Positions 3,574-45,869 of a stretch of DNA of 64,000 nt are shown here, one piece after another. Source of the stretch: Candidatus Omnitrophota bacterium (GTDB taxonomy: Bacteria > Omnitrophota > Omnitrophia > Omnitrophales > Aquincolibacteriaceae); assembly GCA_043821445.1 (NCBI GenBank), contig JBDRCT010000031.1, positions 35,620 to 99,619 of the forward strand, read 5' to 3'. Made by a program: the position numbers and the translations under genes. Positions within the stretch are counted from its first letter, which is position 1, and the number at the start of each line of letters is the position of its first letter. Below the pieces are notes generated by a model. It ran no database searches. It was not told where the DNA came from and was given only the letters and a program-made list of their open reading frames with translations.

Positions 3574-3843
3574 ACCCGCGACCGGCTTTTCAAATGTCGG
3601 CCGTCAAGATCCAGGCGAGGATCCGTGAAACGTCACCATAAAATAGGGTTCGCCGTGGCGTTGCTGCTGGCCCTGATCGCCATGATAAGTTTGATGCTCT
3701 TGCAGGCCTAGCGTTCAAGGGAATGAACCTAGGGAGTTACAGAAGACTCCCACAGTGCCTACGAGTTTTTGTTGCGTGGGCCAGGAGGTTGCTTGCGTCA
3801 ACAAAGCAGAAAACTTTAACGGAATAAACAGCAGGAGGGAATT

Positions 3844-27400: not shown

Positions 27401-30400
27401 CGGTCTCAGCCCGCGGGCTGAATTTTGCGGGGGCTTGGGTGGATCTTGACCAGTTGAAAGTCTTGTCAGGCTTGTCTCAAACCGGTGTTTTAGCCTCTCT
27501 CAAGGATGTCGGTTTTGTGATGGTGACGGACGTGAGCGGCGGGAATGTGACTTTTGTCCAACGGAGTCTCGGCAACCGGACCCAGGAACTGAAGATCGAG
27601 CTCGTGCCGTGGCTCGATGCGAACGGGGTGCCGATCCTGGATACCGGAGGGAATATCATTTGCGTCGAAAAATATGTCTTCGTTTCCAAGAATGACGGCT
27701 TCGGCGGCGAAGAAGTGACGGTGAGCGAGGACGAGTTCTTAAGCCGTTGGCTTAAAGAGAACAGCCTTAAGGGAGCGGTGTTCACCGATCAGCCGCTTGG
27801 GACGGGTTCCGTTCTTATGACGGACGAGGAGGCAAAGGCCATCTCCGGATTATCTTCCTGGGATATCCTTGTGGAATATTTCAAATCGGCGTTCGGGATC
27901 GATCCGGAGCGGGCCAACGTTCCGAAACTTATCAGAGAATTGAGCAGTAGTGAAGAATACAGTGTTCGTTTGGCGCAAGTGAACGCGATCAAAGCAGCGG
28001 TCCGGGATTTTCTGGACTTGTATCTCGCGTCGGACGAAGCGGGACGTTCCGCCAAGATCCAGTCTTTGGGCCTGGTCCCGGAAGAGGTCATTTCTATTAC
28101 ATCCCCGGAAATAGAAACGATCCTGGCCTGGCTCGATTCCCGCGACCTCCACTTCGGTCATTCCGCCTTTTTTGCGATCCAGCATTTGATCGAAGAAAAC
28201 AATGTTCAGGCGTCGCTTTTTGATATCGCCCGCGAAGCAATTCTAATCGATATCATGACGGGCGTGATCCATCCGCTCACGACCGGGGACCTGGAACTTT
28301 CCCTTTTTGCTCTCAACCGGGTTGCCAAAAACCGCGGCGTGCTCTTGACTCCCGCCAAAGTCACTTTCGAGGAACTCAAGCGCGAAGTCGTTCAAGGCAA
28401 GGGCGTTCTGGTTCATATGAACGGCAACCATTACGTCGTGGTGACCCAAATAGCACTCGCGGCCCGGACGGACGAAAATGGCGACCCTGTGCTGGATGAG
28501 CAAGGCGCTCCTGTCATGATCGAGGTCGTGACCTATATCGAAAAGAATGTGGGGCCGTCGGGCGAGGCGCAAACGCTCGCGCGGTCAGAATTTGAAAAGA
28601 TATGGATGGTGACCGCGGAGGGCGAGGGGATCGTGCTGACGCCGGCGGAAGTTTCGAACAACGCCACAATCATGACGGACCGGGAGACCCAGCAGATCAC
28701 GGGCGCGTTCTTCGGTTTTATCTTCGGGATCCTGAAGAAGATCTTTGATACCGTGATCCAGGTGGTGAAAGCTGTTTTTGAGGCTGTAAAGACGGTTTTG
28801 CGTTATGTCGTCGATCTTGTGGTCGATGTGGTCCGGGCTCTCACGGATTTCGTGTTGGAGCTCGGTAAAAGTCTCGTCTCGCTCGGGCAGTTCTTCTTTG
28901 AGGCCGTTCGTTTTGTCGGGGCCATTTTGAGCGGAGATCTGAACGGAGGGTTCCAGTCGCTCCAGCGGGCGCTCGGTCATTTCGGGAATTTCCTGTTCTT
29001 CGCCGCGGCGGTGGGTGGGTTCCTTGTGCCGGGGCTGGCCCCGCTTCAAGTGATCGGCTTCCAGGTCTTGAGCGTTGCCCTGAGCAAAGGGACCGGCGTC
29101 GTTCTGGATAAGATCGGGATCAAAAGCCCGGTAATCAAAAACCTGATCGGTAGTTTTATTACGGGCGGGGTCTTTGGCTTTGCCGGCGGTCAGATCGGAT
29201 CGGGGACCACGTTTTTAAACTCCGCATTGGCCAATCTTGCCATGTCGGGCGTCAATGAGCTTGCCCTGCATATCGGCCTTTCTCCTCCGATCGCGGCGAA
29301 CCTGGGTATTCTTGCGAGTATTATCACCGGCTCCGTGGAAGGCGGCGCAAGCCTCCCGGAAGCTTTCAAGACCGTCGCCCCGGACCTGATAAAAGAACTG
29401 ACCCTTTCCGGTGTATGGGCCCTCGGAACCTCCCTTGGCATCGACCCTCGTCTGACCTCGCTCATATCCCTGCCACTTGGAGCCGGTATCGGCGTTGGTT
29501 TTGACAGTTTACTTCACGCAAGCACGATCAATTTCGCCAGTCTTACGGCCGCTATCAAAAACGGTCTCGCCGCCGGTGCAAAATCGATCGGTTTCGATTT
29601 CGGGGGCGCGACAAGTCATCCGATTTTCGGTTCGCTTCTGAGTGGAAATATTTTAAGTTCTATCGGAAGCGCCATGGGGGACGGCAGCCTCTTCAGCGGC
29701 ATTCTGGATATTCTCAAAACGGCGGTCCTTATCCCGTTCAACGCCGCGAATGACATGGTCCAAATGACGCTTCAGGGGGTACGCAATTTTGATTCCTTGA
29801 TCCAGGAAAAAGGTCTTGCCGGAGCGCTGGAATCCCTGCTTACGTCCATATTCAGCCGCCAGACAATAGAAAAATTGTTAGGTTCCGGAGGCATTGGAGG
29901 ATTCGTCGGTTCTGTGGCAAAGATCCCCGCCACGCTCAACGGCCAAAGCGTTCTGGAACAGAAGTTCGACGGCACGACCTCTCTTTTTTATGACCTTGCG
30001 GGCAATTTTATCGGCAAAAAAGAGAATGGCGTCACGCAACTCGGCGCCTTTGGCTTCGATGTTGCCGGCAAATGGGCCCTTCTGGCCGGCCAGGTATTCG
30101 CGCCGCTTGCCGGTGGCTTGGCCTTTGCCGGAGAAGTGGCGGATGGTCAGCTCCGTAATGGAAAGGTCTATGATCCGAATGGCATTTTAGTCGGTACCCT
30201 GGATCCGGAAAAGGATGGCGAATTCATAGAAATCGACGGTCGCGATCCTCAAAATCCGGATTCCAATTCTTCCGGCAAATTCTGGTCCGGTATTTTTAAT
30301 CTTGCCACATTGGGACTGCAGTTCTTCTTCCAGGATGGAGTTTTGCGGAAGATCGAGTCCTCGGTTTCCAGCAACGCCGATGTGTCCAATTTGTTTAAAA

Positions 30401-31368
30401 GTAAATTTCTTTTTGGCAACGGGTTTAATAGCACAATGGTTCCCGAAGGAACACTAGATACGTTAATTCCGGCCTATAGCAACAACCTATTATTAGATGG
30501 TGTGATCAATTTAATGCAAACGTTAATGGTTTCCTTATACGAAACAACAGAGCTATTCGGAAATATGGGAGAGTGGGCGAGCGACTTCATCTACAGAATG
30601 GACGACAAGGATTTCTTTCAAAGCCTGCTTTCGGGGACCTTTACCGGAGTTCTCCCTGCTCTTTTTATGAACTGGCTCTTTCCCAATAATTTGGTCACGG
30701 AGGTTAGAAATAAACTCTTGGCCCTTGAAGATAGTCAGGGTTGTCTCGAAAAGGGGATCGCGTTCGCTCATTCAGGGTTTTTTGCCCCTCTTCTTGGCGT
30801 TTTAAGTGACACGCGTCCAGATGGCTCAAAATTTGATGTTCAGACTCTCATCAACTATGAAGGTCCTTATGTGGATTACAACGCATACATTGACAATCCT
30901 TATTTGAAACGTATTATCAACGTTTGGGGAACAGCTCCAACAATTTTCCCACCCCTAACAGGGCAGTGGACAGGGAATTACGTCATAGATCCTCGTTCGG
31001 GTGATTTGGTTCGAGAATTGGATCCAACGAAAAAGGATGTGCAGATCAGTGATTTTGGTCCACCGTTTATTGCTCCTGCGAATTTCACGGGGCTGGCGGA
31101 TATTGAGAATATCAATATCGAGATCATTGGAGCCCGGCACAATGACTTTGCGTATGATCCAATCGCTTGGAATATGGATCGCTATCTCCCTGAAGAACGT
31201 GCGAGAAAGATCAATCTCCTGACGAATCAATTTATGCGACAATTATATGGCGCCGTGGCACAAGATCAAGCCGAACCGGGTAAGTTGCTCTTATTCTTGC
31301 GAAACCATCCAAATGCCGAGCAAGACACCGTGACTGGGATTTGGCAAATTGATTTTGGCATAGCATGA
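18439..31368 (+). CDS. Giant secreted YD/RHS-repeat-like polymorphic-toxin-type protein (4309 aa)
   Basis: Uninterrupted 12.9 kb ORF. RBS GGAGA. Signal peptide. Ig-like repeat region (aa ~450-1000). Dozens of YDxxG(R/N)L YD-like repeats. Coiled coil. DUF4214-like YRKILGRDPSEGEIDTWL. C39-like GNHYVVV segment. A ~480-aa Gly-rich hydrophobic region. The last ~100 aa are homologous to the orphan cassette at 32396..32716. Stop overlaps the next gene's ATG (ATGA). Confidence 0.9.
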   Translation: MKRSFSFPLRWVAFCIAMIFGWNQIVWAGEILPRDYIVPSEQPATTTSVSVPVVSTGAMPVQMLTTTDFLANKRGPLSPATKDTSEIIPKAVASPNTARYEYERYDFQDTLDLLRPEFASAVIVKEITAEDLKKLSELSFETGVIVLHGEIVLFTSGSEDEIGMLSAVKMLADQATFISHTHPSIYSAGGPSGGDINEAVAAPGEEYVITHTGVYAYNNEGILNNGDSHGYDWYLEKLKEAVGASKAEQDQIEARKDLNEFVTAQDAYNRAKEDERETFRMGGTLSYASGLKTSNITTLSGSPYPYITTGSSAGTALSYASSTSQFNLSYNVPGASDVSGFTISFDNASTPTMETQNISILTNLVFGLKGPATSIKLEIVDINNAKDTFTLTGISNKTERFWRVPVSAILNTIDKTRITQLNFIMTQANTTSSRRTGVISIRSKGLKTTAPSQPAVTSTVPAATNQTTLLLSGTKEANSAIFINGTQVVARDTSTTWTSTVNLTTEGNNTFNITAKNSIGLVSTAKTVTIQRDTVVPTGSININSGAAYTASVAVTLDLSSTDSGSGISTMSFSMDNVTWTTPETYADSKAFTLPIGDGDKTVYVKYYDKAGNVSAVFSKHIQLRATGPVVVIATGTPSLIKVKTLTINYTVDGVVKEKTFTDLAEGENMLTITEQDEAGNETSVNWAVTLDTIPPAVVVTNAVPSLTNQAALVVDYTADGVVKQKTFTLAEGDNAGLTIREEDAAGNVRMITLSNIVLDTVAPVIVVTSAVPSLTNQAALVVDYTVDGVVKQKTFTLAEGDNAGLTITEEDTAGNAQTITLANVVLDTVAPVIVVTSAVPSLTNQAALVVDYTVDGVVKQKTFMLAEGDNTGLTITEEDAATNSRTVTLSKVMLDTVPPAIMIDPATPHLISVNTFTVSYTVDGVSKLKTFASLVEGENALTVTETDLAGNRTTLTHSVTYTPLTAIAFPVLELRSPQIVTTPNYELIYAVDGTEKRETYALQEGVNLLTIEESSAAGKVIAHYLVVLNVIADPVFPANETELIFNLNGTDAALVDPNFDASGLIQAGWIKSKDRTAYRLSGGLLAEEFRSDGTHIYYDFLGRIHSKIDKNKKITSYQYKINATGNLLSAHIEEGNNRVDLDSNGLILFWKKGDGTEFFFDSGHLTKIKKDVVEYLYQLRQVGSEWISESIDPLPLDSPYPASLHYTSDSVLSRTVMPDGTIYQYDLSGAVTRVVDPAGKETLYDPEKDLFGAFHSFSVTRDGITRIYGEQGKLTQLKDADGTVFTIDQDKVVMIQKQEGALYRDLVYDTTGTLQNALVKLPDGRELLIVGQQLTQIRTVDGTILEIQNDKPARSLTTNGRVYQYRESTDANGNPIFIGDLTEFINDKGNHIFVANGRVSGMEETRGSVLIKTGFAYDNAGRIVEATIDQDGVRTARFVYDYQTSGTIVTNNVGSIRYYDSSGTLMKLITLRGEEYTFSQITDPSGAAGFLQTLIKVVNQLEGTIDYENGKPVRIVRPDSIEMKDIVLNPDDSLLSAVLIYPSGAEGLIEAGELKQIIETDGTKKEYTAGLLRKITRPTFEATNFSYAFDVSGNLTSVIVQDGLGSRTYTTAGILSSAVNPSDDIFTYDALGNLIKVKTSANEEFNYSGQNLSSIKFSTGEMLTGIVLNANGNLSGGTYDPKDGSIWTIAGGAISQIRDASGNNLYYSGGRVTQIVKMNGDRITYNTSGQITQITWADGSCARQITTNSQDALVNAIIYSPSFDSAVLSTTLSGIGSMERPLVNGVLQTPGSQVRTAGKFFDFNGLYWREVNSTALHGTTQNYIRVKMTGSNFTVSFYATNYTNSLFSQQTYQSAAGSPYVYIPLPDLSVKYLYAIEISPKGNATVDITDTPLVFSSGDYQPVAWVNTATAFINQKIVPGFPERITAALSQKTALESASQDFSAAETFSTVKVSDSQFQIESLKNAVLQARLSPDAVISATYNRDTNLLFTAHSDPAFDPAADANGEWKNSVSGWEEDGFDFAPVVTAPSGDVPLKIEYASNGGSQTVSFQNASRAIYQNDRIETLITPEGKTVHYSYAAGSSDVDRVIFDPDQIDPETTEVKYEYGKIREIRKAGALVYLYSYEFDDLGDEITVIEDTVENQIRRFLKGKLISISNLNSGFKTVYDYDGSGRIAKAVTSRSGRIFGAFAYAYSGDDTLITEEATGISRRYGADGFLKELITAKDEFYKYSVLSDGQAEDLLLQELVKIVTSRGTIEYSREKPVEITAADGTVIKNLIVESFVDENHMTRMVIQRAEVHLPAPDGRIALIEKGKVFYISSPGGEIQEFENGFLERLVNAQGEITDLIYTRNASGEIESIGVEDKNGLRIYDRNGQLIRAVLPDTTQIDYDASGQLLRLQTPGGEIWGYSAGSLSSMTLAGGGGKIEQIVLDASGNVQSCVYTKDGIVTTIQNGAVASKKTLDGTLFIYGSSGKVVEILKPAGAGYDRLIYDANGVLTSVERADGSRARQITADAQDTLINAIIYSPLFDGAVLNATLPGIGSKERPLVNGVLQTPGSQVGTANEFFDFNGLYWRSVNSTSLHGANQNYLRIKMMGSNFTVSFYSTNYTNSLFSQQTYQFVVESPYVYIPLSDLSVKYLYAIEISPKGNVAMDITDTPLVFSSGDMPAMDWTGIASGFTDQKDRPAVPSIINETLFKKAAFETQAADQFLLRSPDQLDEGQAQTFYDSALGIVKGALLEPETIIAAAYRASDSTLLMAARANNTVAHYVNGQIDYVTDLDGNLLIDHEYDAAGDLVAVHLMDAKKKLEEQIIAAQTEVSRQETEALMALAVERGHAIEAIQNKLNEGLAAINAERERIRQLSSQRVCRTVLFFKSCENVQVDVSAPLSELDQMEKDLREETAVALAGLDAVVAQKKTEIETDAKAAFVELEKQQLTTYREILKQELRPVLFHHYRKILGRDPSEGEIDTWLKREIGDDHVSLLSFKEAVSARGLNFAGAWVDLDQLKVLSGLSQTGVLASLKDVGFVMVTDVSGGNVTFVQRSLGNRTQELKIELVPWLDANGVPILDTGGNIICVEKYVFVSKNDGFGGEEVTVSEDEFLSRWLKENSLKGAVFTDQPLGTGSVLMTDEEAKAISGLSSWDILVEYFKSAFGIDPERANVPKLIRELSSSEEYSVRLAQVNAIKAAVRDFLDLYLASDEAGRSAKIQSLGLVPEEVISITSPEIETILAWLDSRDLHFGHSAFFAIQHLIEENNVQASLFDIAREAILIDIMTGVIHPLTTGDLELSLFALNRVAKNRGVLLTPAKVTFEELKREVVQGKGVLVHMNGNHYVVVTQIALAARTDENGDPVLDEQGAPVMIEVVTYIEKNVGPSGEAQTLARSEFEKIWMVTAEGEGIVLTPAEVSNNATIMTDRETQQITGAFFGFIFGILKKIFDTVIQVVKAVFEAVKTVLRYVVDLVVDVVRALTDFVLELGKSLVSLGQFFFEAVRFVGAILSGDLNGGFQSLQRALGHFGNFLFFAAAVGGFLVPGLAPLQVIGFQVLSVALSKGTGVVLDKIGIKSPVIKNLIGSFITGGVFGFAGGQIGSGTTFLNSALANLAMSGVNELALHIGLSPPIAANLGILASIITGSVEGGASLPEAFKTVAPDLIKELTLSGVWALGTSLGIDPRLTSLISLPLGAGIGVGFDSLLHASTINFASLTAAIKNGLAAGAKSIGFDFGGATSHPIFGSLLSGNILSSIGSAMGDGSLFSGILDILKTAVLIPFNAANDMVQMTLQGVRNFDSLIQEKGLAGALESLLTSIFSRQTIEKLLGSGGIGGFVGSVAKIPATLNGQSVLEQKFDGTTSLFYDLAGNFIGKKENGVTQLGAFGFDVAGKWALLAGQVFAPLAGGLAFAGEVADGQLRNGKVYDPNGILVGTLDPEKDGEFIEIDGRDPQNPDSNSSGKFWSGIFNLATLGLQFFFQDGVLRKIESSVSSNADVSNLFKSKFLFGNGFNSTMVPEGTLDTLIPAYSNNLLLDGVINLMQTLMVSLYETTELFGNMGEWASDFIYRMDDKDFFQSLLSGTFTGVLPALFMNWLFPNNLVTEVRNKLLALEDSQGCLEKGIAFAHSGFFAPLLGVLSDTRPDGSKFDVQTLINYEGPYVDYNAYIDNPYLKRIINVWGTAPTIFPPLTGQWTGNYVIDPRSGDLVRELDPTKKDVQISDFGPPFIAPANFTGLADIENINIEIIGARHNDFAYDPIAWNMDRYLPEERARKINLLTNQFMRQLYGAVAQDQAEPGKLLLFLRNHPNAEQDTVTGIWQIDFGIA
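20519..21150 (+). repeat. Tandem 210-nt (70-aa) near-identical coding repeats within the giant gene
   Basis: Three almost identical copies (VAPVIVVTSAVPSLTNQAALVVDYTVDGVVKQKTFTLAEGDNAGLTITEED...) plus more divergent flanking copies from ~20320 to ~21540. Confidence 0.85.
23641..24140 (+). repeat. Internal ~500-nt segmental duplication in the giant gene (copy 1)
   Basis: ITWADGSCARQITTNSQDALVNAIIYSP...SVKYLYAIEISPKGN...PLVFSSGD is repeated at 25936..26435 (about 80% nt identity). Confidence 0.85.
25936..26435 (+). repeat. Internal ~500-nt segmental duplication in the giant gene (copy 2)
   Basis: VERADGSRARQITADAQDTLINAIIYSP...SVKYLYAIEISPKGN...PLVFSSGD. Confidence 0.85.
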
Positions 31369-31874
31369 AAAAAACATTTATTGTTTCCATGATTTTAATA
31401 GTCTTGGGGCTTACTGTCGCAATGCTATTTTTTCAAAAAGAAAATTCAGGATCGAGCGTTCAACCCATAGGTGAAAAAGGGATTTCTGTAGGAAGTCGAA
31501 GCGGAGCGTTTATTTCTATGGACGCAAAGCAAAAACCGCATCCTGAAACTCTAAAAGAGGTAGAGGACTATAAACGTGATATTAAAGCAATTGATGATGC
31601 GTGGGCCAATATTAGGACTGGGAGTTCTTACTTTAAGAATGGTGACTATGCAAAGGCCGCAGAAGCATATGAAAAGGCTTATGTAATCGGCGGTGGGATA
31701 AAGCATGTGAGTGGTTTTGATTTAGCTGACGTATATGAAAAGCTTGGTCGTTATGATGATGCCGTAACAGTTTTGGACAATATGATTAAAAATCGAGAAA
31801 CGAATGAGTATGGTATTCAGAAAGCCAGCGAAATTCGCACCTGCCTCCTTGCCGCTAAAGCCAAACAGCAATAG
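31365..31874 (+). CDS. Candidate immunity protein (TM + TPR-like, 169 aa) coupled to the giant gene
   Basis: ATG overlaps the giant-gene stop (gcATGAaa). N-terminal TM helix. TPR-like YFKNGDYAKAAEAYEKAY. Conserved tail FDLADVYEKLGRYDDA..NEYGIQKA..IR. Paralog at 32716. Confidence 0.6.
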   Translation: MKKTFIVSMILIVLGLTVAMLFFQKENSGSSVQPIGEKGISVGSRSGAFISMDAKQKPHPETLKEVEDYKRDIKAIDDAWANIRTGSSYFKNGDYAKAAEAYEKAYVIGGGIKHVSGFDLADVYEKLGRYDDAVTVLDNMIKNRETNEYGIQKASEIRTCLLAAKAKQQ

Positions 31875-31925
31875 ACTTAAAGTTTAGAACTTTTCTTCCA
31901 GAAATTTCCTCTACGGAAACCGGAC

Positions 31926-31988
31926 ATCCGGTTCCGGGAATCGCTCAAGGAAACCGCGGTTGAGGCGGGCATCACGATCCCATGGTAA
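31926..31988 (+). pseudogene. Displaced 3'-end fragment of the 36238..37164 gene family
   Basis: CCGGTTCCGGGAATCGCTCAAGGAAACCGCGGTTGAGGCGGGCATCACGATCCCATGGTAA is near-identical to 37105..37164 (...RFRESLKETAVEAGLTIPW*). No upstream gene body. Confidence 0.7.
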
Positions 31989-32236
31989 TCCCTATGAATC
32001 CATTATGGCTGGCTGGCATAGCGGTCTTGGTTTTGAATCTTCCCTTCGGATTTTGGCGCGTCCACGTCCGGAAATTTTCACCCTCCTGGTTCCTGGCGGT
32101 CCATCTTCCCGTCCCGTTCGTGATCGCGATCCGCTTCCTCATGCGGCTTGGCTTTCATCCCGTCACGTATCCGGTCCTTGTGGGCGCGTTTTTTACGGGG
32201 CAATTCCTTGGCGGTAAGATCGCAAAATCGAAGTAG
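31982..32236 (+). CDS. Small hydrophobic membrane protein (84 aa)
   Basis: Two to three predicted TM helices. Lies between the two displaced gene-end fragments. ATG at 31982 or 31994. Confidence 0.4.
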   Translation: MVIPMNPLWLAGIAVLVLNLPFGFWRVHVRKFSPSWFLAVHLPVPFVIAIRFLMRLGFHPVTYPVLVGAFFTGQFLGGKIAKSK

Positions 32237-32238
32237 GG

Positions 32239-32390
32239 ATCCCGCAGTTATGTCTGTCCCCCCAAAAGGGACTGCCACAGGTTCTTGTCGGTGCCGGTGG
32301 GGACGAGCGTCGGACCTTGGAGGAACAGGATCTCCTGGCTTCCCGGCGGCGTGGCCGCGGTGCACCGAATGACGGGAACGCTTACGGAGA
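32239..32390 (-). pseudogene. Displaced 3'-end fragment of the 37188..38420 (-) gene family
   Basis: About 85% nt identity to 37188..37335. Encodes the conserved C-terminal tail ...SVPVIRC(T/I)A(A/S)TPPGSQEILFLQGP(T/M)LVP(T/A)GTD(K/Q)N(L/M)WQS(L/P)LGGQT. Homology ends abruptly at ~32390. Confidence 0.7.
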
Positions 32391-32719
32391 ATGGAGATTT
32401 TGGTCCGCCGACCTGGACTTTTGATGATGCTAACTTTACAGGCCCAGCAGGAATTGAAAATATTAATATCGAGATCATTGGGGCCAGACATAATGATTTT
32501 TCCTATGATCCTGCCGCTTGGAATTCGAATCCCTATGAACCGGAAGCAGAAGCGCAGGAAATTAATCGGAAAACGAATTTATTTATGAGAGATTTATACA
32601 AATTTGCTCTTCAGGATCAAACCAATGCGGGTGTTTTATCGAATTTTCCGAGAACCGAATCTGTCGTGAGTTATAACTCATCTAGAAATATTTGGGTCGT
32701 AGATTTTGGTGATGTATGA
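32285..32719 (+). CDS. Orphan toxin C-terminal-domain cassette (homolog of the giant protein C-terminus)
   Basis: From ~32396 (DFGPPTWTFDDANFTGPAGIENINIEIIGARHNDFSYDPAAWN...) it is about 50% identical to giant aa ~4195-4309. The upstream part of the ORF (32285..32395) is antisense to the displaced fragment, so an independent start is doubtful. Stop overlaps the next ATG (ATGA). Confidence 0.55.
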   Translation: MSVPVGTSVGPWRNRISWLPGGVAAVHRMTGTLTENGDFGPPTWTFDDANFTGPAGIENINIEIIGARHNDFSYDPAAWNSNPYEPEAEAQEINRKTNLFMRDLYKFALQDQTNAGVLSNFPRTESVVSYNSSRNIWVVDFGDV

Positions 32720-33225
32720 AAAATAGAACGCTTTTCATTCTGGGCTTTATTTTTACTATTCTGATGCTCGTTATTTTCTTATTTCGGCAAACGAATACAT
32801 TCCAATCTAAGCTTGAAATCTGGCCGATGGGAGACGGTAAGGGGATTTTCGTTGGAGAAAGTAAATCCCGATATATGGAACGTAATTCCCAAGGCCAATC
32901 TGAAGAGATAAGGAAAAGAATAGAGCAACATGAGGTTGATGTCGGTGCCATTGAGGAAGCACATCGATACAGGATGCAGGCCTATGGTTTTATTAAAAAT
33001 GGCCAGTTGAAGGAGGCTGCCGTAGCGTTTGAGAAAGCATATGCGGCAAAAAGGCATGCTGTCACAGTTTTTGATTTAGCTGACGTATATGAAAAGCTCG
33101 GTCGTTATGATGACGCTATCACTATTTTAGATAATATGGTTCTAAGTAAAGAAACCAATGAATACGGGATCCAAAAAGCCGTTGAAATTCGTGCCCGTCT
33201 CCTAGCTGCCAAAGCCAAACCGTAA
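32716..33225 (+). CDS. Candidate immunity protein paralog (169 aa) of 31365..31874
   Basis: Same length, N-terminal TM helix and conserved tail (VFDLADVYEKLGRYDDAITILDNMV..ETNEYGIQKAVEIRARLLAAKAK). ATGA coupling to the orphan toxin domain. Confidence 0.6.
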   Translation: MKNRTLFILGFIFTILMLVIFLFRQTNTFQSKLEIWPMGDGKGIFVGESKSRYMERNSQGQSEEIRKRIEQHEVDVGAIEEAHRYRMQAYGFIKNGQLKEAAVAFEKAYAAKRHAVTVFDLADVYEKLGRYDDAITILDNMVLSKETNEYGIQKAVEIRARLLAAKAKP

Positions 33226-33432: not shown

Positions 33433-33543
33433 ATGAGATATAAAAAATTATCCGATCTGCAACGGGACATTGAAACGTTTGACGGAAAATGGGAGCTGTC
33501 GCCTTGCGTGGTATACTTACCTCAGAAAAAAGATCAGCAATGA
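33433..33543 (+). pseudogene. Truncated 5' fragment of a 36238-family paralog
   Basis: 33356..33505 is about 85% identical to 36160..36310. MRYKKLSDLQRDIETFDGKWELSP matches MRCRKLADLQKDIETFDGKWELSP, then diverges and stops after 36 codons. Confidence 0.65.
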
Positions 33544-33550
33544 GGTGCTT

Positions 33551-34096
33551 ATGACAGCCGTTAACATAGAAAAAGAGATCGAGAAGCATTTTTTCCCGGA
33601 CCCGATTCCTTCCTATGGCCCCCCTAAATTCATTATTTTTACGGGATGTGTCGGATCGGGAAAAACGACCGAGCGGCGGAAGCATTTCTCCCAAAGCTAT
33701 GTCACGGTCGATGCCGGCGAGATCTTCTGCTCGCTGACGAAAGGCGGTCACGGCGCTTTCGGCAAAGACTATTTTTATGAAATGAACACCATCGGCTTCA
33801 GGGTCCTGGAGCGCGCCGTCACGGAAAAACGGAATATTGTCATGGAGATCGTAGGCGCGGAGCCTGAGATACTGAAGGGCTTCGACGACATTATTTCGAG
33901 CTTCGGATATAAAGTTGATTTTCAGGCTGTGAATTGTGAACCCGCAGAAGCGTATGAACGCCACGTGAATGCCGGCATCAATGATCCCTCGTATATTTCC
34001 GCCCATCATACCGAACCTTATCATCAGAAATGGGTTGCTGACCTGTGGGATAAAATGACAGGTCAAAAAGAAGATGATGCGCGGCAAAACAACTGA
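33551..34096 (+). CDS. P-loop NTPase, zeta-toxin/AAA_33-like kinase
   Basis: Walker A motif FTGCVGSGKTT and Walker B-like NIVMEIVGAE. Size and layout fit small zeta-toxin-type kinases. ATG at 33551 (MTAVNIEKE). Confidence 0.5.
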   Translation: MTAVNIEKEIEKHFFPDPIPSYGPPKFIIFTGCVGSGKTTERRKHFSQSYVTVDAGEIFCSLTKGGHGAFGKDYFYEMNTIGFRVLERAVTEKRNIVMEIVGAEPEILKGFDDIISSFGYKVDFQAVNCEPAEAYERHVNAGINDPSYISAHHTEPYHQKWVADLWDKMTGQKEDDARQNN

Positions 34097-34232
34097 GCTA
34101 ATGTCGCTATTCATCTGAAAAATGACATGAGAGGGCAGTTAAGCAGATCCTAAGCAACCTCCCCCAATTTCCCTAAGCCAAACACCCCACTAAGGTGTAT
34201 ACAGATCACAAAGTTGGTGCAAGGCATCTCCC

Positions 34233-34802
34233 GTGCAAGCTATAATCGCCATCATGAGAAGGTTTTTCCTTGCTCTTGCGATATTCTTTTTATTTCCTAC
34301 CCTCGTGTTTTCTGCTGATCCTATCAGTACGTCTCATGTCTATTTCTCTCCGAAGGGTGGCTGCACCAAAGCCATGACGGATGCCATAGGACAAGCCAAG
34401 CAACCGGTCTTGGTTCAGGCATACTCTTTTACTTCATACCCCATAGCTCAGGCTCTCATTGAGGCCGGGAAGAGAGGCGTTAAGGTCGAAGCCATTGTTG
34501 ATGGGAAACAGATCCATGAGAAGAAAACAAAGTGAGGGTTGGTGGCCAAGGGGGGAGTGATCACTTATCTGGACCATGCTCATTCGACCGCCCATAACAA
34601 GGTGATGATGATTGATGGCAAGACCATTATGACTGGCTCTTTCAACTTTACAAATGCTGCTCAAGAACGTAATGCGGAGGATGTGTTGATTTTGGATGCT
34701 CCGGCTTTGGCGACTGAATATACGAAAAACTGGAAAATACATCAAAAGCGCTCAGAACTTTATAAGATTGAGAACAGGCGGAGTTGTGGGGATGAGCATT
34801 AA
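34233..34802 (+). pseudogene. Phospholipase D-family (Nuc-like) nuclease interrupted by an in-frame TGA
   Basis: Signal peptide. Nuc-like N-terminus (VLVQAYSFTSYPIAQALIEAGKRGVKV). In-frame TGA at 34533..34535. Same frame continues with the HKD motif HNKVMMIDGKTIMTGSFNFTNAAQERN. Confidence 0.6.
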
Positions 34803-35214
34803 AGCGGGGGCTTTCATTGGCGGCTTGACCGGGGTCGTCATGATTTCGGCGGTAACATTTAGTCCTATGGGACATGGAGAGGAACCTGTCAGGGAATATT
34901 ATGCAAATGGAAAGCTAAAATCAGAACAGTCCTTCAAAGATGGAAAGCTTGAGGGAATCTTTAAGGTATATTACGACAACGGACAATTAAGAAAAGTGGG
35001 ATCTTACAAGAACGGGAAGCGAAATGGGCCGTTTAAGACGTATTATGAAAACGGGCAAGTAGTTTTAGATGAATTTTACATGAATGGAAAACAAGAGAGG
35101 TCGTTTAAGACATATTATAAAAATGGGCAATTAAGGAGCTATTCGCTCTACAAGGATGGAAAACGAGTGGGAGCGGTTAAGGAGTATGACAAAGACGGAA
35201 AGTTAAGGCCGTGA
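34792..35214 (+). CDS. TM-anchored MORN-variant (YwqK-like) repeat protein
   Basis: MSIKAGAFIGGLTGVVMISAV TM helix. Six repeats of YYxNGxLxxxxSYKxGKxxG type. Confidence 0.6.
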   Translation: MSIKAGAFIGGLTGVVMISAVTFSPMGHGEEPVREYYANGKLKSEQSFKDGKLEGIFKVYYDNGQLRKVGSYKNGKRNGPFKTYYENGQVVLDEFYMNGKQERSFKTYYKNGQLRSYSLYKDGKRVGAVKEYDKDGKLRP

Positions 35215-36237: not shown

Positions 36238-37164
36238 ATGAGATGCCGAAAACTAGCTGATCTCCAGAAGGACATAGAAACATTCGACGGTAAGTGGGAG
36301 CTGTCGCCCACGCATGAGCTTACGTATAAGGAGCGCGGTGGGGACAAAGAAGCGACGATTAAAGGACTGCTTGTAGCGGTGGAGCCGGATGCGCTGGTGA
36401 TCTCGGTCACGATGAAAGAAGACGAGAAGCGTACCGTGACCGGGCTCGTGAAGCTGTCGGGCAAATGGGAGCTTGACGAAAAGAACCGCATTACCTTCTC
36501 TGTGAAGCGCGGCCTCGACCGCTACGGCAAGCTTACGTTTCAGGGCTCCTGGGAGATCAATGATAATTTTCAGGTGACCTATTCTTTTTCCACACAACAA
36601 GTTCTCGAGGGTTCGGGGAAGAAACGCCGGCGTGTAACACGCACGACGCAGAAACTTATTTTCGAAGGCCGTTGGGATTTTTCAGAGAAAAATTGCCTAA
36701 CCTATCTGATCGGAGTGGACTCCGGATCTTCGTTTCGGTTCCGGGGAACATTTGAGACGCACAGCATTCTCGCGAAGAAAGGGGAGATCCGCTACCAGGT
36801 TGGCGTGGAGTATAAAACTTCCCGGGGTGCGAAAAAATGGTTGACGCAGACGATCACTCTTTTCGGGAAGTGGAAACTTTCGGACGACCTCGCGCTTTCT
36901 TTCGAGCTCGAACGCGCAGACGGCCGCAGGTCCGAGATTCGCGTTGGTGCCGACCTTTCCTTGAAAAAACTCCAAGGGCCGGGGCTCCGGCGTCTGCTAT
37001 CCGACGAGGTTTCAGTGGATCTTAAAAACCGTGAAGGCGATCCTCTCGGCATCGAACTCGTTCTCACCAAGGACCTCTTCGACGGCAATGCCCAAACTTT
37101 TGTCCGGTTCCGGGAATCGCTCAAGGAAACCGCGGTCGAGGCCGGCCTAACGATCCCGTGGTAG
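36238..37164 (+). CDS. Beta-repeat protein (five GKWEL-type ~55-aa repeats), function unknown
   Basis: Internal repeats GKWELSPTHELTY / GKWELDEKNRITF / GSWEINDNFQVTY / GRWDFSEKNCLTY / GKWKLSDDLALSF. No signal peptide. 5' and 3' fragments of paralogs occur at 33433 and 31926. Confidence 0.6.
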   Translation: MRCRKLADLQKDIETFDGKWELSPTHELTYKERGGDKEATIKGLLVAVEPDALVISVTMKEDEKRTVTGLVKLSGKWELDEKNRITFSVKRGLDRYGKLTFQGSWEINDNFQVTYSFSTQQVLEGSGKKRRRVTRTTQKLIFEGRWDFSEKNCLTYLIGVDSGSSFRFRGTFETHSILAKKGEIRYQVGVEYKTSRGAKKWLTQTITLFGKWKLSDDLALSFELERADGRRSEIRVGADLSLKKLQGPGLRRLLSDEVSVDLKNREGDPLGIELVLTKDLFDGNAQTFVRFRESLKETAVEAGLTIPW

Positions 37165-37187
37165 TATTAAAAAAGGGAATCTTGCCG

Positions 37188-38420
37188 TTATGTCTGTCCC
37201 CCCAAAGGGGACTGCCACATGTTTTGGTCGGTGCCGGCGGGGACGAGCATCGGGCCTTGCAGGAACAGGATCTCCTGGCTCCCCGGCGGCGGCGTGGCCG
37301 AGATGCACCGGATGACGGGAACGCTCACGGGGGCGCTTGAATTGCCGGCCAAGTCTTCCGCAAGGACGGTAAAATGATTATCCCCTCTGACGAGGCCTAC
37401 CAGAACCGACCAGGTCACGGAACTATCGTTTGTGACAAGCGGCGTGTACGAGAGGCCGCCATCGGAGGAGATCCAGATGCTTGCTCCGGGAGCCTTGCTT
37501 CCGCTTAAGGTGACGGTACGAGTGGTCACGGTCGCGAGCGGTGGTGTCACCAGGGGGGCGGTCATCATATAAGTGATCGGGGGAATGGTCACCACGGCGC
37601 TTGGATGGCCGGCCCTGTCCTGAGCGAGAATCGTGAAATGATTGGTACCGCTGACCAGTTTCACCGGAGCGGACCACGTCGTGGCGGTAGTTTTTGGCAC
37701 AAGCTGTGTGTAGAACCGGCCCCCGTTGGATGAGATCCGGATGCTTTCTTCGGCCGCTTTCGTTCCGTTTAACACGATCCATGGATGGTTCGACACGGTC
37801 CCGGGCGGCGTCACCGTGGGAGCGGGCACCGTATAACTGTAGGTAATGGTCGGGACGATCACTTCGGCGCTTGGATTTAAAGTCTCATCTGCCGCGACGA
37901 TCCTGAAATCATTGGTTCCGTCAACAAGGTCCACCGAAGCGGACCAGGGGGTCTCTGTGCTCTCCGCCACAAACAGCGTGTACGACCTGCCGCCGTTTGA
38001 GGAGATCCAGAGGCTCTGCCCCGGGGCCTTGGTCCCGCCGAGTGTGAGCGTGCTCATGCTGACGGTCCCGGGCGGCGGCGCGACATCAGGGGGAGGCACG
38101 AACTCCGGTGTTTCGGGAGCCTTCAGGGTTTGCGTTTCTGCACCGGCTGAAGGAGCGGAGAGCGCGCCGGTGGCCAAAAAGTCAAGGATCGCGGGAGGGA
38201 TCCGTATCGCGGGAGGTACAGGGGCCGTTTCCGCTACGGAGTTTTTTTGCGCCAGGGTGTCCGTCTGAGGCTGGTCCCATCCGGCCTGGATGCCGGTCTC
38301 AGGCTGCGTCGTCACCGCGAAGCCCGGCAGAACGGCCTGTGAGAGAACAAAAGAGAGGGCGGCGGTCAGTAGGAGGCTCTTCTTTGCGACGAGTACTTTC
38401 TTAAACCGGTCATGGATCAA
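37188..38420 (-). CDS. Secreted protein with three Ig-like ~90-aa repeats
   Basis: Signal peptide. Three tandem repeats (PGTVS..L.GTKA.G.S..ISSNGGR.YT..V......WSA.V.LV.GTN.F.I.A.D..) resemble the giant-protein N-terminal Ig-like domains. Its C-terminal tail is duplicated at 32239..32390. Confidence 0.65.
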   Translation of the reverse strand: MIHDRFKKVLVAKKSLLLTAALSFVLSQAVLPGFAVTTQPETGIQAGWDQPQTDTLAQKNSVAETAPVPPAIRIPPAILDFLATGALSAPSAGAETQTLKAPETPEFVPPPDVAPPPGTVSMSTLTLGGTKAPGQSLWISSNGGRSYTLFVAESTETPWSASVDLVDGTNDFRIVAADETLNPSAEVIVPTITYSYTVPAPTVTPPGTVSNHPWIVLNGTKAAEESIRISSNGGRFYTQLVPKTTATTWSAPVKLVSGTNHFTILAQDRAGHPSAVVTIPPITYMMTAPLVTPPLATVTTRTVTLSGSKAPGASIWISSDGGLSYTPLVTNDSSVTWSVLVGLVRGDNHFTVLAEDLAGNSSAPVSVPVIRCISATPPPGSQEILFLQGPMLVPAGTDQNMWQSPLGGQT

Positions 38421-41161: not shown

Positions 41162-41493
41162 TCCGCGTCACTTTCCCGGGAACTTCCGCGGTTTCTCCCG
41201 TGACTCGCACGCCCTCTTTTTTCCCTCATGACCCGCGTTCCTGAGGCCCTTTTTCCCGTCTGTTCTGGCCCACGCCGGAGACTTTTTCCCAAGGAAGGGT
41301 AAAGCGAAAAGAAAGATTTTTGATTGCATGGAAATGTATTACAATTTCAGAGAAGCTCATTCAATGCCTTGTCTTTCGAGCTCCTTTGAGTACGAAGGAT
41401 GGGTGTGTTCAAGGAAAGGGTTGAATGGGGAAAGAGTGTCCGGTCCGTTGACGCCCGGCATTGTGGGGTCCGATATTTGAGGTGCTATTCGAG

Positions 41494-42942
41494 ATGAAGA
41501 TCTGCCTGATCAATCCACCCTTTACAGACCGGTTTTGCCGCGGTGCCCGTTGGCAAGCTTCCAGCAAAGGCACGGCCCTGTGGATGCCGATCTGGCTGAT
41601 CTATGCGACCGGGGTGCTCGACAAAGCCGGGCACCAGACGCGTCTGATCGACAGCCCGGCCAAGAAGCAATCCCGTGAGGAGCTTTTGGACGAGGTGAAG
41701 GGATTTGCCCCACAAATGATCGTCATTTATACGGCGACGGGGAGCATTGTGAACGATCTGGAAATAACGGATCTCCTGAAGCGGGCGTGTCCGGAAGCGA
41801 TCACCGTGGTCACAGGGCCGCATGTTTCCGTTTTGCCCGAGGACTCCCTGCGCCGTTCGCCGGGAACTGATTACGTGATCTGCCGCGAGTTCGACTCTGT
41901 GTTGCGTGATATGGCGGCCGTGATGGACCGGGGGGGCGATCCTTCATCCCTTGCGGGTCTCGCGTATCTTCGCGACGGGAAATTTACGGCTAACGAACCA
42001 CCGCCTCCGATTGAGAATCTCGACGAGCTGCCCTTCTCCATCCAGGTCATCGAAAAACATCTGAATATTCATCATTATCACATGGATTATTTGCTTTACC
42101 CGTGGGTTCAGACCTATTTCGGACGGGGCTGCTACGCGCAATGTGTTTTCTGCCTGTGGCCGCAAACCCTGATGGGCCGGAAGTACCGCAAGCGCAGTCT
42201 CGACAGCATTTTTGCCGAATTGGACTATATCCGCGACCGGGCGCCTTACGTCAAAGAACTGATGATCGATGATGACACTTTCACCTTCGACCTGGGGCGT
42301 GTCCGGGAATTCTGCGAGCGGAAGATCGCGGGGGGGTATAAGATCAACTGGTGCGCCAATGTCCGGCCCAATATCACCGACATCGAGCTTCTCCGGCTCA
42401 TGAAAAAAGCGGGTTGCCGCGCGATGGTGGCCGGGTACGAATCCGGGAGTCCGGAGATCCTGAAACGGATAAAAAAAGGCATCACCCTGAGGCAAATGGA
42501 GGCTTTTGCCGGGGCCGCCCGCAAGGCCGGCATTCAGGTGCACGGCGATTTCATTATCGGCCTTCCGGGTGAAACTCCCGGGACCATCGAAGAGACTTTC
42601 AGGACGGCGCTCCACCTTAAGCCGGCGACGATGCAGGTTTCGATCGCCCTGCCGCTTCCCGGTACGGAGTTTTATGACTGGCTCAAGGAGAATAAATTTC
42701 TGAAGACCGAGGATTTCTCGCAATTCCTGACCCCGGAGGGGGCCCAGAATGTGATGATGGATTATCCGGGTCTTTCGGGCGAAGACATGAAAAAAGCCAT
42801 GCATCGCATTGTCGTCCGTTATTATTTGCGGCCGGGTTACCTGGCCGGCGCTCTTTGGAGGATCGTGAAAGATCCCCGCGAGGCCGTGAAGTTCTGGCAT
42901 GCGGGGTGCAAGTTTTTTAAATATGCCATGTTTGGAACCTGA
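41494..42942 (+). CDS. B12-binding domain radical SAM protein (class B), paralog 1
   Basis: N-terminal cobalamin-binding-like domain (KICLINPPF...). Radical SAM motif GRGCYAQCVFC (Cx3Cx2C). TIM-barrel core. Confidence 0.8.
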   Translation: MKICLINPPFTDRFCRGARWQASSKGTALWMPIWLIYATGVLDKAGHQTRLIDSPAKKQSREELLDEVKGFAPQMIVIYTATGSIVNDLEITDLLKRACPEAITVVTGPHVSVLPEDSLRRSPGTDYVICREFDSVLRDMAAVMDRGGDPSSLAGLAYLRDGKFTANEPPPPIENLDELPFSIQVIEKHLNIHHYHMDYLLYPWVQTYFGRGCYAQCVFCLWPQTLMGRKYRKRSLDSIFAELDYIRDRAPYVKELMIDDDTFTFDLGRVREFCERKIAGGYKINWCANVRPNITDIELLRLMKKAGCRAMVAGYESGSPEILKRIKKGITLRQMEAFAGAARKAGIQVHGDFIIGLPGETPGTIEETFRTALHLKPATMQVSIALPLPGTEFYDWLKENKFLKTEDFSQFLTPEGAQNVMMDYPGLSGEDMKKAMHRIVVRYYLRPGYLAGALWRIVKDPREAVKFWHAGCKFFKYAMFGT

Positions 42943-44371
42943 GGAACCCATTTTGGATTTACTTCTGATCAATCCCTACTCCTCGAACCCTCATCCGATG
43001 ATCCCGCTCGGTCTGGCGTCCCTGGCCGCTGTGGCCTTGGAGGCAGGTTATTCTGTCAAGGTCGTGGACGCCTGGGCTGAGGGTTTGCGGGATCCCGATC
43101 AACTGGCGAAAAGACTGCGTGCGTTGCCGGTGCCCCGAGTGACGGGGATCAGCGTGCTCACGACCAACCTGCGCAGTGCCAAGGAAACCGCAGTTGCTTC
43201 GCGAACGATCTTTCCCGGGACTCTGCTTGTAATCGGGGGGCCCCACGTGTCGGCGTTGCCCGATGAAGTTTTAAAAGAATTTCCCGCTGCTGATCTGGGG
43301 GTCTATGGCGAAGGGGAAATGACGCTCAAGGAGATCCTCGCGGCCTTTACGCCGGAGGGCAAGCCGCCCCGGGATCTGCCCGGCACCCTGTGGCGGAACG
43401 CAGATCAAACGACCGTTAAGGCCGGACCGCGGCCGACGATCAAGGATCTGGACAGCCTGCCACGGCCTGCCCGGCATCTTTTTACTCTGGACAAATATCA
43501 TCCGCATTCCCCCTACGGCAGAAGATGGCGTTATGTCAATGAGATCACATCGCGTGGTTGTCCCTTTCATTGCGCTTATTGTTCCAAAAGCGTCTTCGGG
43601 GATTCTTACCGGGCGTTCTCCCCGGAACGTGTTGTGGACGATCTCCGGGAACTGGTGGCCCGTTACCACGTGCGGGAGATCCATTTTTATGATGACGATC
43701 TGACCCTAAATCGTAAACGGGCGGTGGAGATCATGGAACGCCTGATCGCGGCGGACCTGGACCTGATCTGGTCCTGCACGACCCGGTGTGATCTCGTGGA
43801 CACCGAACTTCTGGGTCTGATGAAAAAAGCCGGATGCTGGATGATCAGTTATGGCATTGAATCGGGGAATGAAGCTCTGAGGCAGACCGTGCAGAAGGAA
43901 GTCACCCGGGAGCAGATCGAAACCGCGGTCCGGGACACCAAACGGGCCGGGATCAGAGTCACCGGTTATTTCATGATAGGGCTGCCGGGCGAAACAGAAG
44001 AGACCGTAAAAGAAACCATGGGTTTTGCCGACCGGTTGAAGTTACACTACGTCAATTGGGCGGTGATGACCGTGTATCCGGGGAGTCCTTTCTATTTCGA
44101 TATTAAAAATGGAAAATACAAGGATTGCAAATTAACGAAGCAGGGCAGTGAAAAAGGGTCTCTCTTCCAGGACTCATTCGAGACCGGCGTGGAAGGTTGT
44201 TTGACCCGCGATCGCATGGAAACATTGGTTCGCCTGGCCACGCGCCGTTTCTACTTGCGGCCTGACAGCCTGTTGCGGACCCTGACCGATATCAGGTCCT
44301 TCGGTCAGCTGCGGCGTACCTTGCAGACGGGATGGAACATGTATCATTGGTTGAGAAAAGCATCGGCATGA
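42923..44371 (+). CDS. B12-binding domain radical SAM protein, paralog 2
   Basis: LLLINPYSS B12-like domain. SRGCPFHCAYCS motif. Overlaps the upstream gene by 20 nt. Confidence 0.8.
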   Translation: MPCLEPEEPILDLLLINPYSSNPHPMIPLGLASLAAVALEAGYSVKVVDAWAEGLRDPDQLAKRLRALPVPRVTGISVLTTNLRSAKETAVASRTIFPGTLLVIGGPHVSALPDEVLKEFPAADLGVYGEGEMTLKEILAAFTPEGKPPRDLPGTLWRNADQTTVKAGPRPTIKDLDSLPRPARHLFTLDKYHPHSPYGRRWRYVNEITSRGCPFHCAYCSKSVFGDSYRAFSPERVVDDLRELVARYHVREIHFYDDDLTLNRKRAVEIMERLIAADLDLIWSCTTRCDLVDTELLGLMKKAGCWMISYGIESGNEALRQTVQKEVTREQIETAVRDTKRAGIRVTGYFMIGLPGETEETVKETMGFADRLKLHYVNWAVMTVYPGSPFYFDIKNGKYKDCKLTKQGSEKGSLFQDSFETGVEGCLTRDRMETLVRLATRRFYLRPDSLLRTLTDIRSFGQLRRTLQTGWNMYHWLRKASA

Positions 44372-45843: not shown

Positions 45844-45869
45844 AGTGAGCGAGGAGATCGACTGCGGGT

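Follow-up and report, generated by a model that had tools for sequence, protein, structure and literature searches.

A sequence-orphan family of lipase-like C-terminal tips with TPR partners in giant proteins of Omnitrophota, candidate polymorphic effectors

At the C-terminal end of a giant protein encoded in a 64,000-nt stretch of contig JBDRCT010000031.1 from a Candidatus Omnitrophota bacterium (hereafter the window) lies a tail carrying the motif ENINIEIIGARHNDF, a second copy of which is found in a small orphan cassette further 3'. In a sequence-only reading of this DNA, the motif was taken for the junction demarcating the C-terminal module of a polymorphic toxin, in the manner of VENN in CdiA or PxxxxDPxGL in Rhs, and the ~60 aa past it for the toxin itself. 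The question raised by the locus is thus threefold, i.e., where the variable module begins, what it encodes and what the gene following it does. The answer proposed here is that the tip represents a new sequence-orphan family of lipase-like effector tips of a familiar kind, accompanied by a tetratricopeptide repeat (TPR) protein, and not a new junction motif.

Both copies of the tail are present where that reading had seen them. From the list of open reading frames (ORFs), copy 1 corresponds to the last ~105 residues of a 4,309-aa ORF, from DFGPP (nt 31051-31065) through the motif (nt 31105-31149) to the stop, and copy 2 lies inside ORF 32285-32719, where DFGPP is found at nt 32396 and the motif at nt 32456-32500; the TTG start at 32285 is doubtful and the public gene call, namely P0027, begins at the ATG at 32369. 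The two tails are identical at 58 of 105 residues (55%; BLASTP E 1e-25). When compared by codon, the first 48 positions (DFGPP to AWN) are 75% identical and the last 57 only 39%. DNA homology between the copies begins at DFGPP, with none further 5', the start proposed earlier (31065) being 14 nt within the shared block. The duplication extends into the 3' gene, where, in agreement with the immunity-like neighbour first proposed for each copy, both tails are followed by a gene for a 169-aa protein with a transmembrane (TM) helix and TPR repeats (44% identity; E 2e-42), tail and gene overlapping by 4 nt in each case. Nucleotide identity between the two modules shows two peaks, at the motif (78-84%) and over the last third of the TPR gene (73-98%, including a 30-nt exact run), which flank a ~540-nt diverged core. 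When only identical residues are counted, the codon too is slightly more often the same at the TPR 3' arm (13/16) than elsewhere (14/33), by which recent gene conversion is weakly suggested at this arm. Gene conversion was also considered at the motif arm and set aside, protein constraint alone accounting for the conservation there.

Homologues of the tip are rare, 9 being found by a word-indexed search and 110 by an exhaustive profile search of 1.8 billion cluster representatives; the named source metagenome-assembled genomes (MAGs) are mostly Omnitrophota, two being labelled Planctomycetia. Once the homologues are aligned, the conserved unit is seen to be a ~320-aa domain starting from FGNGF (nt 30412) and not the ~105-aa tail; in the long proteins where the whole domain is matched, it occupies the extreme C-terminus of a chain of 2,000 to 4,500 aa. 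Its conserved blocks are, in order, FGNGF, AFAHSGFFAPL, INYEGP, NPxLKRIINVWGT, a loop of variable length, DFGPP, IENINIEIxGAxHNDFSY and NxFMRxLY. Chance does not account for the motif: in this family of 110 cluster representatives, no other 20-residue stretch of the domain is as conserved (mean pairwise identity 0.59), the Ser elbow coming second (0.51) and the residues past the motif scoring 0.28-0.46. The stretch past the motif is nonetheless no more variable than the N-terminal half of the domain and exhibits conserved helices (N277, F283, M284, R285, L287, Y288); as such, the passage from a conserved motif to a divergent tail holds between the two copies of the window but not across the family, and the ~60 aa regarded as the toxin form part of the ~320-aa domain. 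The family was rightly described as unassigned by sequence, since no match to the tip is found in Pfam, NCBIfam or PDB by sequence or profile (for Pfam and NCBIfam, 11 members at E<=0.1-10).

The predicted structure of the tip presents a central, mostly parallel beta-sheet with helices on both sides and the canonical strand order, and an alpha/beta-hydrolase fold can be assigned to the model with little doubt. Structural relatives include thioesterases, chlorophyllase, cutinases/PETases and other lipases, as well as 6nkc, a homologue of Bacillus subtilis LipA; Foldseek matches against PDB are weak (best E 0.022), most of the top ones sharing the same fold, i.e., cutinases, PETases and lipoprotein lipase. 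In model numbering, Ser130 (= Ser4112) sits between strand 124-129 and helix 133-141, namely at the nucleophile-elbow position, and His252 (= His4234) falls just past the last core strand 241-247; across 29 diverse full-length domains, Ser130, His252 and Asp254 do not vary. Candidates for the acid are (i) Glu159, after strand 152-158 (28/29), (ii) Asp223, in a loop after strand 176-182 (~24/29) with a low predicted local distance difference test score (pLDDT), and (iii) Asp254 (29/29). Across the family, the elbow reads (A/S/T)-H-S-G-(F/A/G/N/Q/S/D/H), where the +2 residue is often not small. Because His252 follows the last core strand in the model and both Ser and His are invariant, the flagged motif is, on this prediction, strand beta-8 plus the catalytic-His loop. 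The idea that the ARHNDF cluster could be catalytic thus survives in part: judging from conservation and model, its His is very likely catalytic and its Asp is conserved, but its Arg and Asn are not. The tip would quite probably be an active Ser-His hydrolase, for which a lipid is a possible substrate.

Regarding where the variable module begins, metagenome contigs were scanned with the C39-like region of the giant protein (~870 aa 5' of the stop) as a 5-sequence alignment, which gave 80 loci; a word-indexed homologue search with the scaffold region gave 2 proteins only. Among the 72 loci with the gene end inside the locus, 28 end in the hydrolase family and 44 do not, even after profile iteration. 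These 44 other ends form ~21 sequence clusters, 3 of which are truncated or frameshifted scaffolds, leaving ~18 unrelated tips, all of them accompanied by a small 3' gene of their own; the polymorphic-toxin context suspected from the sequence alone is in this respect well founded. Aligned by BLAST with the 44 scaffolds bearing other tips, the giant of the window shows homology from aa ~3140, ending at aa 3818-3990, past which 200-550 unrelated residues are left in the subject proteins. The G+C content (GC) falls from 0.50-0.54 to 0.41 between the intervals 30100-30399 and 30250-30549, and values of 0.39-0.47 persist across both the tip and the TPR gene. Since scaffold homology and GC both break there, the boundary is placed at nt ~30350-30410, just before FGNGF and ~230 codons 5' of the motif formerly taken for the junction; because of the GC step at 30250-30400, the tip-plus-partner block would be of foreign origin. 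The motif itself, sitting ~230 aa inside a domain that is conserved from FGNGF on in every homologue, does not demarcate the C-terminal module. No pre-tip junction motif common to all tip classes emerged when one was sought.

Some of the alternative tips deserve a description of their own. The tips of L040/L047/L079/L086 form one cluster with a classical GHSAG lipase-type motif and a TM partner. By eye, those of L016/L020 and L045/L072 are like permuted papain or NlpC/P60-type domains, and Gly-rich hydrophobic tails stand at the ends in L036/L089/L091 and L057. As for L040 and L037, they were considered as orphan C39+tip cassettes and proved to be frameshifted or interrupted giants. In L069 (6357-9266, 10001-13123), a truncated C39+tip cassette is located beside three tyrosine-recombinase-like ORFs and phage-like genes, and in L009 (988-3386) IS200/RAYT-like transposase ORFs alternate with orphan TPR genes; these contexts hint that tip modules travel with mobile elements.

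A protein identical to the first partner is named by NCBI 'MAG: tetratricopeptide repeat protein [Candidatus Omnitrophota bacterium]', and in close tip homologues with downstream sequence (loci L001-L007, L009, L011, L046, L053, L065), the next gene always encodes a protein of 145-210 aa that opens with a TM helix and continues through a variable linker into a conserved TPR core of consensus ...YEKLGRYDEA...IRxRLLAAK. A profile hidden Markov model (HMM) of the partner matches the downstream ORF in 15/27 hydrolase-tip loci vs 0/42 loci with other tips. In nearly all loci, the downstream ORF starts between -73 and +37 nt relative to the stop, L068 having it at +120 nt, and the type of this ORF tracks the tip class. 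Partners beside more distant hydrolase tips nearly all possess a signal peptide, a lipobox or a TM helix, and several other tip classes have small partners without a hydrophobic N-terminus; exported partners for envelope-acting enzymes vs cytosolic ones for other tips is the pattern known from toxin-immunity pairs. In Pfam, the partners match only TPR-type repeat families (TPR, PPR, ARM_TT21) and not the lipase-specific foldase (Lif), and in NCBIfam they give mostly weak TPR-protein matches, again without Lif. The membrane-anchored TPR protein is probably the antidote of the tip, and the two together can be viewed, with moderate confidence, as a toxin-immunity pair.

The tip fragment of the orphan module covers HMM positions 203-312 of 320, and the Ser elbow as well as the whole N-terminal two-thirds of the fold are missing, so that it is no enzyme on its own; its TPR gene is intact. 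Such remains are common elsewhere: L001 holds one full-length orphan and one 219-aa orphan beginning just before the Ser motif, 5'-truncated fragments also occur in L009, L011 (beginning at VWGT) and L056 (69 aa), and tip-less extra TPR genes in L009, L042 and L051, and ~25 short database proteins begin anywhere from HMM position ~95 to ~270, several of them exactly at the motif. Just 5' of the orphan, a 216-nt sequence of host-like GC (56-59%), here called repeat X, stops 3-8 nt before the orphan homology starts. This copy A is split by 248 nt, the insert containing an 84-aa hydrophobic ORF (31982-32236) without Pfam match. Copy B is a direct repeat, to which copy A is 92% (vs 37103-37163) and 87% (vs 37176-37330) identical by blastn, and the two bracket the low-GC island holding the orphan module. 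A 65-nt piece of repeat X is also seen in metagenome locus L051 (14106-14170). Since Rfam gives no match on the whole window, repeat X is not a known RNA. The orphan would be a displaced former tip, left behind when the new tip-TPR1 module arrived with a piece of its own downstream flank, i.e., repeat X; to enter the resident locus, the new module would have recombined homologously within the scaffold and been joined illegitimately within the resident tip. The orphan's TPR gene may still protect against the corresponding non-self variant, and the conserved DNA of the His strand together with the conserved 3' end of the TPR gene could act as homology arms for swapping the intervening core.

Upstream of the tip, the giant protein exhibits a signal peptide cleaved at about aa 28/29 (between VWA and GE), and Pfam recognises RHS_repeat (9.5e-22) and Big_13 (4e-7); homologous giants range from 2,000 to 4,500 aa. 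The N-terminal ~650 aa are the best-conserved part, with 51-59% identity to P0070, P0015 and P0013. Soon past the signal peptide, aa 180-195 (nt 18976-19023) read HTHPSIYSAGGPSGGD, like the JAMM/MPN metalloprotease motif (HxH...S..D), and no JAB domain is recognised by Pfam in the N-terminus of the giant. Closer to the tip, Peptidase_C39 (PF03412) of Pfam matches 14/15 homologous segments (best E 2.3e-10), the His of the domain being conserved (NGNHYVV), and a degenerate partial copy ending in ..EEAKAISGL is detected by a local HMM at aa 2977-3139. At a fixed distance past the C39-like domain lies a conserved L..E...I(T/R)GA followed by FF (nt 28696-28713, aa 3420-3425), which resembles a double-glycine leader; the C39-like domain may cleave its own polypeptide there, between ITGA and FF. 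The Gly-rich region that follows is conserved among scaffolds with different tips and is a possible membrane-insertion or translocation segment, to judge from its composition. Earlier work on giant proteins of Omnitrophota pointed out C39-like domains as well as TM regions at the C-terminus (10.1101/2023.11.21.568195).

Placed beside known systems, the tip recalls the Tox-ABhydrolase-1/2/3 tips of polymorphic toxins, the first of which equals DUF2235, with which it has in common a lipase-like alpha/beta-hydrolase at the C-terminus of a large secreted multi-domain protein, a small partner gene and alternative tips on the scaffold (PMC3482391). It differs by the lack of Pfam or NCBIfam match, the elbow A-H-S-G-F, the TM-anchored TPR partner and the other lineage, as well as by a scaffold made of Sec signal, immunoglobulin (Ig)-like domains, YD repeats, C39-like domain and Gly-rich region, in which no T5, T6 or T7 secretion marker was found. 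DUF2235 is taken here as the Tle1 family. Tle phospholipases act in the periplasm and have cognate immunity proteins (PMC13133936), and the Tle1-4 effectors delivered by type VI secretion (T6SS) with their Tli immunity (PMC13133936; 10.1101/2023.03.28.534661) probably work in a similar way, i.e., as an envelope serine hydrolase with exported, membrane-tethered immunity; in one reported case, the immunity protein is also an activator of its lipase (10.1101/2023.03.28.534661). The tip of the window nonetheless shows neither GxSxG nor a match to a Tle family (11 members against Pfam and NCBIfam), and no VgrG, PAAR or Hcp context is seen; delivery would be by a giant Sec-exported protein. As the alpha/beta-hydrolase fold includes toxins, namely Tle1-4 and Tox-ABhydrolase-1/2/3 (PMC3482391), the structural assignment does not place the domain in a well-characterised non-toxin family. 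With Rhs and CdiA and their orphan C-terminal/immunity modules, the locus shares YD/RHS repeats, variable tips, cognate 3' genes and 5'-truncated displaced tip-immunity pairs, whereas the orphan and the main tip are here homologous variants of one enzyme, and the orphan is cut within the catalytic domain, in contrast to unrelated toxins severed at a fixed junction. The motif was correctly said to be unlike the known junctions: a regular-expression search of the 4,309-aa protein returns no P....DP.G[LWMI], DP.GL, VENN or [VI]ENN, and Pfam finds no haemagglutinin, TPS or Fil_haemagg. Compared with B. subtilis LipA/Lip_vut1 (1i6w, 6nkc), the tip has 13% identity and no significant sequence or profile match, and is ~140 residues longer, the extra length being made up of an insertion (model positions 53-101), a loop that varies (183-222) and, at the C-terminus, a long helix with a hairpin. 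The C39-like domain, finally, precedes a hydrophobic region near the C-terminus, as described for giant proteins of Omnitrophota (10.1101/2023.11.21.568195), and is followed by a conserved L..E...I-x-G-A reminiscent of a double-glycine leader; compared with the bacteriocin leader peptidases of family C39, it has Ser for the catalytic Cys (Cys only in the homologue P0034) and its putative site in the same polypeptide. Three of the features by which polymorphic toxins are recognised (Zhang/Aravind 2012), namely alternative tips, a tip-specific 3' gene and orphan cassettes, are all discernible here at the sequence level, and a literature search retrieved no description of the tip, of the TPR partner or of a polymorphic-toxin reading for Omnitrophota.

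Considered as a whole, the region is best explained, on balance, as coding for a polymorphic secreted effector whose tip would be lipase-like and whose immunity protein would be the periplasmic TPR protein, the orphan module being a displaced one. In such a system, (i) the giant protein would leave the cell via Sec and then be displayed or released, (ii) the C39-like domain may cut at the conserved ..ITGA/FF.. site, (iii) the Gly-rich segment may help the tip to reach the target envelope, (iv) the Ser-His(-acid) hydrolase would cleave ester bonds there, most likely in membrane lipids, and (v) in the producer, the periplasmic TPR protein would bind and block the cognate tip, thus conferring immunity.

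Sequence and models show the fold, the invariant Ser and His, the linkage of tip and partner genes, the polymorphic scaffold, the GC boundary and the truncated state of the orphan; toxicity, lipid substrate, immunity, processing and delivery are inferred from them. Several observations weigh against this explanation. The tip model is of moderate confidence (pLDDT 68.8, with 90 residues below 50), Foldseek gives no match against PDB at E<=0.001 and the alignment of the family profile with LipA by hhalign is not significant. The triad acid is ambiguous among Glu4141, Asp4205 and Asp4236, and the elbow AHSGF deviates from G-x-S-x-G, with a +2 residue that is Phe or Ala. Regarding the scaffold, the window's own C39-like copy scores 20.4 bits, below the 22-bit cut-off of Pfam, and the nucleophile position is occupied by Ser (HFG[QH]SAF) and not by Cys, which is found only in the homologue P0034 (FGRCAF). 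As 10/10 alternative tips lack any Pfam match, be it to a toxin or to another family, the toxin label of the scaffold derives solely from its architecture. Around the orphan, no promoter, ribosome-binding or terminator signal stands above chance. Structurally, the partner is matched best by YfgM, a chaperone partner in the periplasm that is associated with Sec, and this fits a chaperone as well as an immunity protein. Lastly, Omnitrophota are possible predators, hence the target may be prey and not kin.

These last two points lead to rival accounts that keep the enzyme and change its use. The TPR protein could serve the tip in the periplasm, anchored in the membrane, as a chaperone, foldase or docking factor in the manner of Lif or YfgM, and the hydrolase could be a non-toxic surface enzyme for acquiring nutrients or processing prey envelopes. 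Compatible with the YfgM match, this account is rather unlikely, since it fits less well with partners that are specific to a tip class, with TPR genes that stand as orphans and with a TPR gene left intact next to a dead tip; the partner is moreover half the size of Lif, has no Lif match and, unlike Lif and YfgM, behaves like an immunity gene in its orphans and class specificity. Alternatively, the same enzyme and partner could be directed at the prey or host of predatory or epibiotic Omnitrophota, the TPR protein guarding the producer only during export and the tip diversity reflecting prey range. Predation or host dependence and giant surface proteins have been reported for the lineage (10.1101/2023.11.21.568195; 10.64898/2026.06.07.730766) and the giant has adhesin-like Ig and YD repeats, but conflict between strains that differ in their variants is the best account of orphan immunity genes and truncated former tips, and a prey or host target is rather improbable. 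An extension of the effector hypothesis, speculative and unlikely as it stands, is an undescribed delivery system for polymorphic effectors in Omnitrophota and neighbouring PVC-type lineages, independent of T5SS, T6SS and T7SS, where a Sec-exported giant adhesin with a Ser-type C39-like domain would cut itself at an internal double-glycine-like site (..I-x-G-A/FF..) and free a Gly-rich membrane-inserting translocator together with one of at least 18 unclassified tips, and where tip and TPR gene would diversify by cassette exchange between two arms, the exchanged cassette comprising the C-terminal helices of the hydrolase and the N-terminal two-thirds of the TPR protein.

The remaining accounts bear on the duplicated tail. 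That ENINIEIIGARHNDF is a pre-toxin junction like VENN or PxxxxDPxGL, with the ~60 aa past it as a variable toxin module, had in its favour that the motif is the most conserved stretch and that the sequence past it is the more diverged between the two copies; besides, the database orphans P0036, P0093, P0053 and P0046 begin at or just before the motif, which may be a favoured crossover point. Yet ~230 aa 5' of the motif, including the invariant Ser elbow, are conserved in all homologues, the whole 320 aa are predicted to fold as a single alpha/beta-hydrolase domain of which the motif is an internal strand, the segment past the motif is homologous in all members and never swapped for unrelated domains, the break in scaffold homology and GC stands near nt 30350-30410, and the orphan breakpoints are spread over HMM ~95 to ~270 instead of being fixed at the motif, leaving very little credit to this account. 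Hardly more credible is the expression of the orphan ORF as a 116-144-aa protein with a function of its own, e.g., as a decoy titrating TPR2 or as a regulator: the frame is indeed open from 32285 (TTG) or 32369 (ATG) to 32719, shares 4 nt with the start of TPR2, an arrangement also seen in the main gene, and was predicted by gene callers (P0027), but two-thirds of the fold are gone, including the central strands and the Ser, promoter and terminator signals do not rise above chance, and the frame 5' of DFGPP is repeat-X DNA without protein homology.

Table 1. Positions of the tip, its partner, the orphan module and surrounding features, numbered from the first nucleotide of the window.
Feature	Position (nt)	Strand	Description
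Giant gene, 4,309 aa	18439..31368	+	Signal peptide, Ig-like domains, YD/RHS repeats, C39-like peptidase, Gly-rich hydrophobic region, C-terminal tip
C39-like peptidase domain	28105..28734	+	aa 3223-3432; Ser in HFGHSAF nt 28150-28170, His in NGNHYVV nt 28420-28440
Gly/Leu/Ala-rich weakly hydrophobic region	28717..30393	+	aa ~3427-3985, ~560 aa; Gly 14% vs 7.5% in first 3,000 aa
Conserved-scaffold/variable-tip boundary (approximate)	30350..30410	+	Giant aa ~3970-3990; homology end and GC step
Alpha/beta-hydrolase-fold tip domain (predicted)	30406..31365	+	Giant aa ~3990-4309
Tip landmark FGNGF	30412-30426	+	
Tip landmark AHSGF	30766-30780	+	Ser4112, nt 30772
Tip landmark YEGP	30856-30867	+	Glu4141
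Tip landmark NVWGT	30919-30933	+	
Tip landmark DFGPP	31051-31065	+	Asp4205
Tip landmark ENINIEIIGARHNDF	31105-31149	+	His4234 at nt 31138, Asp4236
Cognate partner 1	31365..31874	+	169 aa; TM helix at the N-terminus, then a disordered linker and ~2.5 TPR repeats; putative immunity protein, predicted to be periplasmic
Repeat X copy A	31927-31987 and 32236-32387	+	216 nt, GC 56-59% (host-like); split by 248 nt
Orphan 5'-truncated tip fragment	32390..32719	+	Last third of hydrolase domain only, DFGPP to end, including His strand
Partner 2	32716..33225	+	Intact 169-aa TM+TPR gene attached to orphan
Zeta_toxin-like P-loop protein	33470-34096		Low-GC island
PLD-like (PLDc_2) gene	34233-34535 / 34539-34802		Broken by in-frame stop; low-GC island
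MORN_2 repeat protein, YwqK type	34696-35214		Low-GC island
Repeat X copy B	37103-37163 and 37176-37330	+	Far end of low-GC island; convergent 3' ends of ORF 36238-37164 (+) and Ig-like ORF 37188-38420 (-)
Ig-like ORF, 410 aa (Big_13, Big_6)	37188-38420	-	Converges on island; 3' end within repeat X

Around these elements, the low-GC DNA located 3' of the orphan module (33470-35214) holds three genes (Table 1) and may be a conflict-gene island; MORN_2 proteins of the YwqK type are a listed immunity family in polymorphic toxin loci. Further on, 41461-49278 encodes four B12-binding radical-SAM proteins, HpnJ/BchE-like, for which the best match is TIGR03471 (E 3e-127, below cut-off), a cluster which appears unrelated to the tip.

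For the reading of such loci, a caution follows: when one motif close to the end of a polymorphic toxin is conserved above all others, it can mark a catalytic strand and not a module boundary. Of more interest than the motif itself are the ~18 tip families on the scaffold that are invisible to Pfam. If the favoured explanation is true, bacterial conflict systems would gain a new lipase-like toxin family together with a new TPR-type immunity family, and the 3,000-4,500-aa surface proteins of Omnitrophota, uncultured bacteria suspected to be predators or epibionts, would include bona fide polymorphic effectors. The tip, its Ser and His residues and the cognate vs non-cognate TPR proteins would then provide a testable handle on what Omnitrophota do to other cells.

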